Of a DNA stretch of 64,000 bases, positions 57,913-58,779 are shown piece by piece. The DNA is from Melioribacter sp. (GTDB taxonomy: Bacteria; Bacteroidota; Ignavibacteria; Ignavibacteriales; Melioribacteraceae): contig DYHW01000002.1 in NCBI GenBank assembly GCA_020723965.1, positions 464,198 through 528,197 on the forward strand, in the 5' to 3' direction. The notes beneath the pieces are model-generated. The model worked only from the letters and a program-made list of their open reading frames with translations, made no database searches and was not told the origin of the DNA. The stretch's first letter is position 1. Each line of letters begins with the position of its first letter. The translations under genes were made by a program, and so were the position numbers.

Positions 57913-58779
57913 ATGGATTCATCATTGATCGACAAAGTAGTATCACAAGTATTTATTGAAAAAGCTCTTCAAAAATTTTATTATACAGGCGATACTTGTG
58001 CTGGCTGGGAGAGGAACGTTATTGATCAGCCGGCTGCTGTAAAAAATATCATAAAAAATGGAGCTGAAAGAATTGCCGCTGGTATTGGCGTTGGCGCAGA
58101 GATCGATAAAGAAATAGCCCGCACAATTGATCACACTTTGCTAAAAGCAGAAGCAACACCCCAAGAAATTGAAACACTCTGCCAAGAAGCGCGCACTTAC
58201 GGTTTTGCTTCTGTATGTGTTAATCCTTGTTTTGTTCCGCAGTGCAGAGATTTGTTGAAAGGTTCCTCGGTAAAAGTCTGTACAGTTATTGGATTTCCTC
58301 TGGGCACAACAACAACAGAAGTAAAACGAGCAGAAGCCGAACAAGCGCTTCAAAGCGGGGCTCAGGAAATTGATATGGTGATAAATATTGGGATGCTAAA
58401 AGCTGGCAATTATGATTATGTATTTTATGATATCAATCAGGTTGTGCTTGCTGCAAAAAAGTATAAAACGCTTTGCAAGGTTATTATTGAAACCGCTCTT
58501 TTGACAGATGAAGAAAAAATAAAAGCATGTTTGATAAGTAAAAATGCAAAAGCTGATTTTGTGAAAACATCAACAGGATTTAGCAAAGGCGGCGCTACTG
58601 CCGGCGATGTTGCTTTGATGCGCTACGTGGTTGGTTCTGCTATGGGCGTTAAAGCTTCCGGCGGCGTGCGAACAACTGAAGAGGCAAAAGCTATGATTGC
58701 AAGCGGCGCTGATAGAATTGGCGCAAGCGCAAGCGTTAAAATTGTTAAAGGCGAATCTGTTACAGCAGGCGGCTATTAG
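57913..58779 (+). CDS. deoC: Deoxyribose-phosphate aldolase with 66-aa N-terminal extension
   Basis: The core IDHTLLK...ASVCVNP...CTVIGFPLG...DMVIN...KVIIET...DFVKTSTGF...VKASGGVRT...GASRIGAS aligns with short Bacillus-type DeoC. There is no in-frame ATG or GTG between 57913 and the core. Confidence 0.9.

Follow-up and report, generated by a model that had tools for sequence, protein, structure and literature searches.

The deoC gene, carried by the 64,000-nucleotide stretch of Melioribacter sp. DNA that was analyzed (hereafter the window), very probably encodes an active-type deoxyribose-5-phosphate aldolase (DeoC, or DERA) with a 66-residue N-terminal extension characteristic of the DERAs of sugar-phosphate-utilising (SPU) bacterial microcompartments (BMCs), an assignment to which we give a probability of about 0.85. 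DeoC-type aldolases are the signature enzyme of the SPU BMCs (PMC8217296; PMC11585597), as the preliminary description of this DNA had stated, and a study of 2024 reported an N-terminal extension of ~70 residues on all SPU DERAs and its absence from non-BMC DERAs (PMC11585597). The extension and its likely role are already published, with part of it tested experimentally in that study (PMC11585597). What is new is the fragmented arrangement of the genes, and the DERA studied here is a candidate signature enzyme for the FRAG microcompartments of Ignavibacteria. The features on which the analysis is based are presented in Table 1.

Table 1. Position of deoC, of the parts of its product and of the shell and candidate cargo genes (positions without a contig prefix are those of the window; C8, C12 and C17 are other contigs of the same genome).
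Feature	Position	Strand	Basis or remark
deoC (DERA) gene	57913..58779	+	288-aa ORF; TIGR00126, 283 bits
N-terminal extension, residues 1-66, SPU-type	57913..58110	+	Outside DERA family models and solved structures
Helix, residues 3-23, encapsulation-peptide-like	57919..57981	+	AlphaFold2 helix, hydrophobic doublets every 4 residues
Cys-containing segment, residues 24-36	57982..58020	+	Column conservation; low-confidence in AlphaFold2 model
'GA.R' module, residues 37-60, universally conserved part of the extension	58021..58092	+	51-sequence alignment
DERA catalytic TIM barrel, residues 67-288, C-terminal Tyr at its end	58111..58776	+	Family models, structures, AlphaFold2
folD, immediately upstream of deoC	57015..57908	+	Stop codon 4 nt before the deoC ATG
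BMC-H gene (shell hexamer), lying 7.6 kb upstream of deoC	50035..50352	+	PF00936, 103.6 bits
Second BMC-H gene, long C-terminal tail	50364..51032	+	PF00936, 92.2 bits, residues 4-79 of 222
BMC-T gene, tandem-domain	C12:51427-51978		Adjoins an RnfC/PduS-like gene
Two BMC-P genes	C8:492949-493496		400 nt downstream of the phosphopentomutase gene deoB
Third BMC-P gene	C17:34214-34489		
Acetylating acetaldehyde dehydrogenase (AldDH), 530 aa	C17:22105-23697		TIGR02518 over residues 4-450
RpiB-like protein (RPI), 210 aa, sole RpiB-family gene of the genome	C12:208889-209521		61-residue N-terminal extension

The catalytic domain of the protein was delimited by profile searches and by comparison with known structures. 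The deoC family model TIGR00126 covered residues 68-278 and the Pfam DeoC model residues 71-270, and the alignment with 27 solved DERA sequences was limited to residues 66-282 (E down to 3e-73), in agreement with the start of the catalytic core near residue 67 that had been placed by eye. Since both the family models and the solved structures miss residues 1-66, this region is a true extra segment of the protein. The catalytic residues D154, K189 and K218 were invariant in an alignment of 51 sequences, and the AlphaFold2 model of the barrel was confident from residue 66 onward, with a pLDDT mostly above 90. The closest homologues came from Melioribacter, Melioribacteraceae and Ignavibacteriales, the DERA of the cultured Melioribacter roseus (P0031) being 80% identical, and deoC was the sole DERA match in its own genome. 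Because its ATG lies 4 nt past the folD stop codon, we place deoC in a housekeeping operon with folD and not in a BMC operon.

The extension is tripartite: an N-terminal helix comes first, then a Cys-containing segment, and last a conserved 'GA.R' module. An amphipathic helix had been proposed for residues 3-23, and its helical character was retained: the AlphaFold2 model built from the 51-sequence alignment placed a helix there (pLDDT about 60-73), and hydrophobic doublets could be read along it (L5/I6, V9/V10, V13/F14/I15, A18/L19 and F22/Y23). By contrast, its amphipathic character was not confirmed at the canonical angle: in windows of 14-18 residues, the hydrophobic moment at 100 degrees did not exceed that of shuffles (p = 0.36-0.80), a point against the likely role of the extension. 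Because the hydrophobic doublets are spaced four residues apart, the best periodicity lay at 80 degrees. The equivalent helices of relatives were significantly amphipathic, for example MDKQTILRLIEEVLRETN and MTETERQQLVDRLARQF. In the Cys-containing segment, C29, G31, W32, E33 and N35 were invariant in 120 close homologues, and position 24, a tyrosine here, was a cysteine in 98% of them; the equivalent segment contains 3-5 cysteines in other lineages. In the third part, G50, A51 and R53 were invariant across the 51 sequences, down to 52% identity, and V43 and G59 were at least 90% conserved.

What follows the helix had been described as a Gly/Cys-containing linker, a description that we abandon given the strong conservation of residues 37-60. 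In the AlphaFold2 model, the pLDDT of residues 24-61 was under 50, and residues 40-48 formed a short helix. The extension was conserved in more than 100 DERA homologues with a full-length identity of 75-82%, and in the 120 close homologues the mean column entropy of residues 26-66 (0.73) was close to that of residues 1-25 (0.72), both being higher than that of the core (0.51). The conservation of the supposed linker thus roughly equals that of the helix, in contrast to classical encapsulation peptides, which is a further point against that role. These results suggest that the segment is more than a passive linker and that residues 24-61 have an additional or different role. A profile-profile comparison aligned residues 37-60 with residues 252-275 of the same DERA (92% probability, E 8e-7). 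This resemblance hints that the 'GA.R' module may have arisen by partial duplication of the beta8 region of the enzyme itself.

We also searched for the extension on its own. Against 1.84 billion representative proteins, it gave 12 matches, nearly all of them contig-end fragments of the same DERA family, and no other enzyme family carrying it was recovered; a repeat protein (P0131) displayed a compositional likeness only and was dismissed. When the extension of a distant member was used as the query in a word-based search, the two matches obtained were uninformative. Among all the ORFs of the genome itself, phmmer detected no paralogous peptide, and a non-acylating aldehyde dehydrogenase that matched through its internal 'FTGS' and 'GQSCGGVER' (E 0.025) was judged a chance hit. 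That no other protein of the genome has a detectable similarity to the extension counts against the best explanation.

The genome (2.76 Mb, 19 contigs) contains a shell set of two BMC-H, one BMC-T and three BMC-P genes, distributed over four places on contigs C10, C12, C8 and C17, and six unrelated genes separate deoC from the nearest of them. The sole RpiB-family protein possesses the motif 'GILIDATG', with an Asp in place of the catalytic Cys (Cys66-to-Asp); we take this Asp to be the residue aligned with the catalytic Cys66 of E. coli RpiB. The RPI gene follows a nucleotidyl-transferase gene in a housekeeping operon. Among the five aldehyde dehydrogenase genes of the genome, the acylating one has an 80-residue C-terminal extension that ends in the helix 'INEAEIEKIIKEF', its final letters being 'GINEAEIEKIIKEFNK', including 'EIEKIIKEF'. 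This AldDH matched those of the Anaerolineales (SPU6-like) loci with E values from 1e-145 to 1e-156, and the latter end in '...EIEKIVADVVNEIL', following the pattern 'EIEKIV..VV.EIL'. The AldDHs of other SPU loci have an N-terminal peptide instead, in agreement with the published data, in which the SPU6 aldehyde dehydrogenase has a C-terminal encapsulation peptide (EP) and the Cys66Asp change is universal in SPU RPIs (PMC11585597). Both SPU partners, the extended Cys66Asp RPI and an EP-bearing acylating AldDH, are thus present at the genome level. The preliminary description had advised a search for such a dehydrogenase and had suggested a dispersed compartment, and the scattering of the shell genes, of deoB and of the extended RPI and AldDH fits that suggestion. 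All the checks advised there that lend themselves to computation were favorable. [quoted passage not shown] A genome-wide search for a PduL phosphotransacylase found none. The absence of PduL and the position of deoC and of the RPI gene in housekeeping operons count against the best explanation.

To follow the extension together with the shell genes, we surveyed 301 Bacteroidota genomes, of which 215 possess a DERA and 61 possess BMC domains, and read 48 loci by eye. The intact three-part extension was present in 53 of the 301 genomes, and shell genes were present in all 53 (raw counts, kinship ignored), as anticipated from the proposed co-variation with BMC-H genes. One of these genomes (G025) had no BMC-H match, but it is 92% complete and possesses a BMC-P triplet. 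No intact extension was observed in the shell-less Bacteroidota genomes examined. Divergent extensions hidden in the frames upstream of shell-less deoC genes were also considered and rejected, the six that we inspected having starts 6-11 residues before the core. The link with the shell would have been weakened by an extension common in genomes lacking shell genes; among those examined, two genomes (G185 and G261) retained a trace of it, in the form of a decayed remnant. Both belong to the genus g33 and are devoid of BMC-H and BMC-P, whereas two other members of the genus, G193 and G085, possess both shell and extension. In comparison with G193, the DERA core of G185 and G261 was 79-81% identical and the extension region 30-36% identical, and their remnant has lost the start codon, A51 and R53. 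Comparison of these sequences indicates that the extension decayed after the loss of the shell within this genus. In the family f35, three genera (g100, g120 and g121) have both shell and extension and a fourth (g90) has neither; similar splits were observed in the families f3 and f8.

The co-occurrence of the two partner enzymes was analyzed in a subset of 76 of the 301 genomes, 40 with shell and extension and 36 others. The extended RPI and the AldDH with a C-terminal extension were present in 38 to 39 of the 40; the exceptions were G137, with no AldDH match, G285, with a core RPI match only, and G061, whose RPI is truncated by a contig end. Among the other 36, both partners were found in a single genome (G016), and the shell-less genomes lacked both. 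G016 possesses a shell, an extended RPI and the AldDH, yet its DERA has no extension, which counts against the best explanation.

The latter genome is in line with a different role of the extension, which we regard as possible though doubtful: it may be tied to the microcompartment without targeting the shell, as a cargo-cargo scaffold or a partner-binding module. It would then nucleate a DERA/RPI/AldDH core, or its Cys segment would act as a redox or metal sensor, and the peptides of RPI or AldDH would drive encapsulation. With an extension-less DERA and both extended partners kept, the aldolase of G016 apparently rides along. The strong conservation of residues 24-61, with three invariant residues, is unlike that of a passive linker, the likeness of residues 37-60 to the beta8 of DERA suggests a protein-protein docking element, and the several cysteines of the middle segment in other lineages speak in the same direction. 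On the other hand, the terminal helix has the doublet spacing of known shell-binding or cargo-binding encapsulation peptides; hydrophobic doublets with this spacing are a feature of the encapsulation peptides of PduP, PduD and EutE. A DERA-RPI complex and an extension-driven aggregation have both been reported, but that complex, in which DERA binds a catalytically weak RPI, was formed with a DERA lacking the extension, which is thus unneeded for RPI binding (PMC11585597). Moreover, such a scaffold overlaps with the packaging of DERA as an SPU-type cargo instead of excluding it.

The scattered genes could alternatively be the relics of a broken-up locus in a bacterium that no longer makes the compartment, the extension being a fossil. 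This scenario would agree with the dispersal of the genes, which occupy at least four contigs and have no operon of their own, and with the lack of PduL. By contrast, every component is an intact open frame, the set is retained as a whole in many genera belonging to several families and disappears as a whole, and the extension decays quickly where the shell is lost. Since the extension is intact here and decays upon shell loss, its integrity argues for ongoing selection, and we consider a fossil to be very unlikely.

To compare this DERA with those of canonical SPU loci, we scanned one genome per species by tblastn and obtained 80 DERA loci, counting the extension as present when the match began at residue 47 or earlier and thus included at least the 'GA.R' module. 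By this measure, 62 of the 80 loci, across phyla, have the extension. An SPU-type RPI and/or shell genes lay within 6 kb in 47 of these 62 loci. The 18 loci lacking the extension (Bacillus, Clostridium and others) had no such genes within that distance. The usual order in the SPU loci was RPI, DERA, BMC-H/P, AldDH, BMC-T, BMC-P, BMC-P, and extension-bearing loci of this kind were found in Anaerolineae, Acidimicrobiia, Elusimicrobia, Planctomycetes (Planctomycetaceae), Holophagaceae, Polyangiaceae and others. The layout of helix, Cys-rich segment and 'GA.R' is common to the N-termini of these SPU DERAs, and the module itself was recovered in those of Chloroflexota, Actinomycetota, Acidobacteriota, Zixibacteria and others.

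These data bear on the idea that the extension has nothing to do with microcompartments and instead helps, for example, to oligomerise, regulate or localise a cytosolic DERA, common descent alone explaining why it accompanies shell genes. Such a role would suit a deoC gene that belongs to the folD housekeeping operon and has its nearest shell gene 7.6 kb away, and the co-occurrence is indeed phylogenetically confounded at deep levels. However, the contrasts between presence and absence are repeated and independent, in one genus and three families, and include the decay after shell loss; extended DERAs are found inside canonical shell loci in at least 8 other phyla; and no extension-less locus of the scan had shell genes nearby. 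We therefore consider this explanation as already largely refuted and highly improbable.

The reality of the extension was examined at the level of the start codons. The 66 additional in-frame residues described from the sequence are borne out by the open reading frame, and the statement that no other ATG or GTG precedes the core is correct: the in-frame start codons are the ATG at codon 1, a TTG at codon 5 and a next TTG at codon 76. Initiation at codon 5 would leave the helix in place, and codon 76 lies inside the core, past the strand that contains the essential IDHT motif. Because there is no usable start codon near the core, a functional DERA must contain the extension. A mis-called deoC start, with a true protein beginning near the catalytic core, would be in keeping with the frequent misplacement of starts by gene callers and with family models that begin at residue 67-71, but it was ruled out, its likelihood being close to nil, by the lack of any in-frame ATG, GTG or TTG between codons 5 and 76, by the position of codon 76 already beyond the IDHT strand, by the conservation of residues 1-66 as protein across families and phyla, and by the opposite bias reported for automated calls, which tend to miss such extensions (PMC11585597).

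We infer from the sequence comparisons that this DERA would be physically encapsulated in the shell. Published data on the SPU6 enzyme are consistent with such a role: the SPU6 DERA is active on deoxyribose-5-phosphate and insoluble, and becomes a soluble, active dimer without its extension, the role of the extension being deduced there from insolubility and bioinformatics (PMC11585597). In the mechanism that we propose, the extension would make the aldolase self-associate with other cargo, bind the inner shell face, or both, and the aldolase would thereby be enclosed during shell assembly. The phosphopentomutase encoded by deoB, next to the BMC-P pair, would make deoxyribose-5-phosphate and feed the compartment from outside. 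Inside, DERA would convert it into glyceraldehyde-3-phosphate and acetaldehyde, and the co-packaged AldDH with its C-terminal EP would turn this volatile, toxic acetaldehyde into acetyl-CoA. The altered RpiB-like protein, extended and with Cys66 changed to Asp, is probably a packaging partner of DERA, as was shown for an SPU6 pair.

On a broader scale, we moderately favor the view that the FRAG microcompartment, in Ignavibacteria as in neighbouring Bacteroidota lineages, would be a complete SPU-type deoxyribose-phosphate metabolosome, whose genes are scattered but co-inherited and co-lost, whose cargo could be read from its extensions, and in which the 'GA.R' module would be a duplicated beta8 acting as a docking element. 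The extensions concerned are those at the N-terminus of DERA, at the N-terminus of RPI and at the C-terminus of AldDH. In the 2021 catalogue, the FRAG types are enigmatic and no aldehyde-generating enzyme is tied to them (PMC8217296). The searched literature contained nothing that linked a full SPU6-like cargo set to the FRAG arrangement in Ignavibacteria, no decay of the extension after shell loss and no likeness of the extension to the beta8 region of DERA. The present arrangement provides a candidate function for the Ignavibacterial FRAG type, in which deoxyribose-5-phosphate derived from DNA detritus would be broken down. The arrangement also indicates that microcompartment cargo can be recognised genome-wide by terminal extensions and co-inheritance, even without a locus, which is relevant to the annotation of metagenome-assembled genomes, where locus-based callers give only 'orphan' shell genes. 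Finally, it raises the question of how the stoichiometry of an organelle would be obtained from genes in unrelated, apparently constitutive operons.

Classical encapsulation peptides, such as those of PduP, PduD and EutE/EutC, are terminal helices of ~18-21 residues with hydrophobic doublets four residues apart. The helices of relatives of the present DERA, which read 'MNRETVDRIINEIIQEKL' and 'MNQKELEEIVRAVLAKK', resemble them. By contrast, the helix studied here exceeds the classical ones in length, its amphipathic character at 100 degrees is not clear-cut, and in place of a poorly conserved linker comes a conserved segment of 40 residues, some of them invariant. The resemblance to a BMC targeting peptide of the PduD or PduP kind, which the preliminary description had proposed, is therefore upheld insofar as the segment is an SPU-DERA extension, but not in the sense of a minimal peptide followed by a floppy linker.

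The closest known system is the SPU DERA, best studied in the SPU6 subtype of Chloroflexi (PMC11585597; catalogue in PMC8217296), which has the same core with an intact D/K/K set, the same extension length and the same three-part architecture, and SPU6 DERAs are homologous to the present protein from about residue 40 onward. The likeness extends to the partners, an RPI with an N-terminal extension and Cys66Asp and an SPU6-clade AldDH with a C-terminal EP, and, among the SPU systems, to the BMC-P triplet and to the lack of PduL, as in the SPU subtypes without an encapsulated PTAC. In contrast to the SPU loci, the genes are not gathered in one locus here and are scattered into housekeeping operons; a PduS-like gene is present, although the SPU6 subtype is reported to be devoid of it; and the Cys segment keeps only one Cys, fewer than in other SPU DERAs. 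The protein conforms to the SPU DERA family except for its residence outside a shell locus. Such remoteness has a precedent, since an EP-like extension has been described on some DERAs whose genes lie outside the HO loci (PMC8217296). As in that Haliangium group, the aldolase is encoded apart from the shell and only its extension allows it to be recognised, and we recovered a Haliangiales DERA (L108) with the same extension architecture; the HO genomes keep a main shell locus, whereas even the shell genes are dispersed here.

The same taxon, the BMC-P triplet, shell genes at several places and an AldDH not adjacent to them are shared with the FRAG type of Ignavibacteriae (PMC8217296). FRAG1-7 are listed without an obvious signature enzyme in that catalogue (PMC8217296), whereas two candidate cargo proteins, the extended DERA and an accessory extended RPI, could be identified here because of their extensions and their co-inheritance with the shell.

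Within the N-terminal extension of DERA, the deoC product, we found internal similarity to the enzyme itself: the 'GA.R' module of the extension was matched by a segment in the C-terminal part of the same protein in a profile-profile comparison, with 92% probability and an E-value of 8e-7. The module may be a relic of a partially duplicated deoC 3' end. The segment preceding this module is variable in its cysteine content. Codon 24 (57982-57984) encodes Tyr here and Cys in 98% of 120 close homologues, the equivalent segment contains 3-5 Cys in other lineages (e.g., CCKDGVCSDNLCVVHN), and one lineage carries a long Gly/Ser/Cys insert within it. 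The segment may form a metal or redox site.

As presented in the table, deoC is surrounded by tightly packed housekeeping genes, and its stop codon is overlapped by the HicB-like ORF of 76 aa. Similarly, the gene for the extended RPI, an RpiB-like putative cargo, lies 25 nt 3' of a nucleotidyl-transferase gene. The cargo genes may be expressed constitutively, in contrast to inducible BMC operons.

Partial sets were observed among the relatives. Genome G016 encodes a DERA without the extension, although shell genes, an extended RPI and the acetylating aldehyde dehydrogenase (AldDH) are all retained; this DERA may be carried into the compartment by association with RPI. In three other genomes (G121, G181 and G153), BMC-P, AldDH and RPI are all lost, two weak BMC-domain matches remain, and DERA has a helix-only N-terminus of 41-45 residues when the most upstream start codon is taken.

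On another contig of the genome under study, the pair of genes for the shell protein BMC-P is directly preceded by the phosphopentomutase gene deoB, and in a Zixibacteria genome deoB, BMC-P and an extended DERA are consecutive. These arrangements tie the shell genes to deoxyribose-phosphate supply. Separately, the second BMC-H was observed to carry a charged C-terminal tail of 140 residues ending in a small helical motif.

Coordinates of the features described (bare positions refer to the window; C8, C12 and C17 are other contigs of the same genome)
Feature	Position	Details
'GA.R' module and its match in DERA	58021-58092 vs 58666-58737	residues 37-60 vs 252-275; profile-profile comparison
Gene run around deoC	56191-60870	YmdB-like phosphoesterase, folD, deoC, HicB-like ORF, TrmH-like methyltransferase, aroA
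Second BMC-H	50364-51032	
deoB before BMC-P pair	C8:491381-493496	outside window
RnfC/PduS-like gene and BMC-T gene	C12:50022-51978	outside window
Class II aldolase	C17:29791-30453	outside window
Zixibacteria deoB, BMC-P, DERA	L084 4031-6834	
Relative G016 locus	C1:1442407-1443048	

In PVM loci and some SPU loci, the cargo includes class II aldolases. A gene for such an aldolase is located at a distance of 4 kb from the third BMC-P gene of this genome, but no obvious terminal peptide was found on its product. The tandem-domain BMC-T gene adjoins a gene for an RnfC/PduS-like iron-sulfur flavoprotein. The AldDH of this genome is most similar to that of the SPU6 subtype, which has been reported to be devoid of PduS, yet a PduS-like gene is present here; the set therefore combines features of different subtypes.
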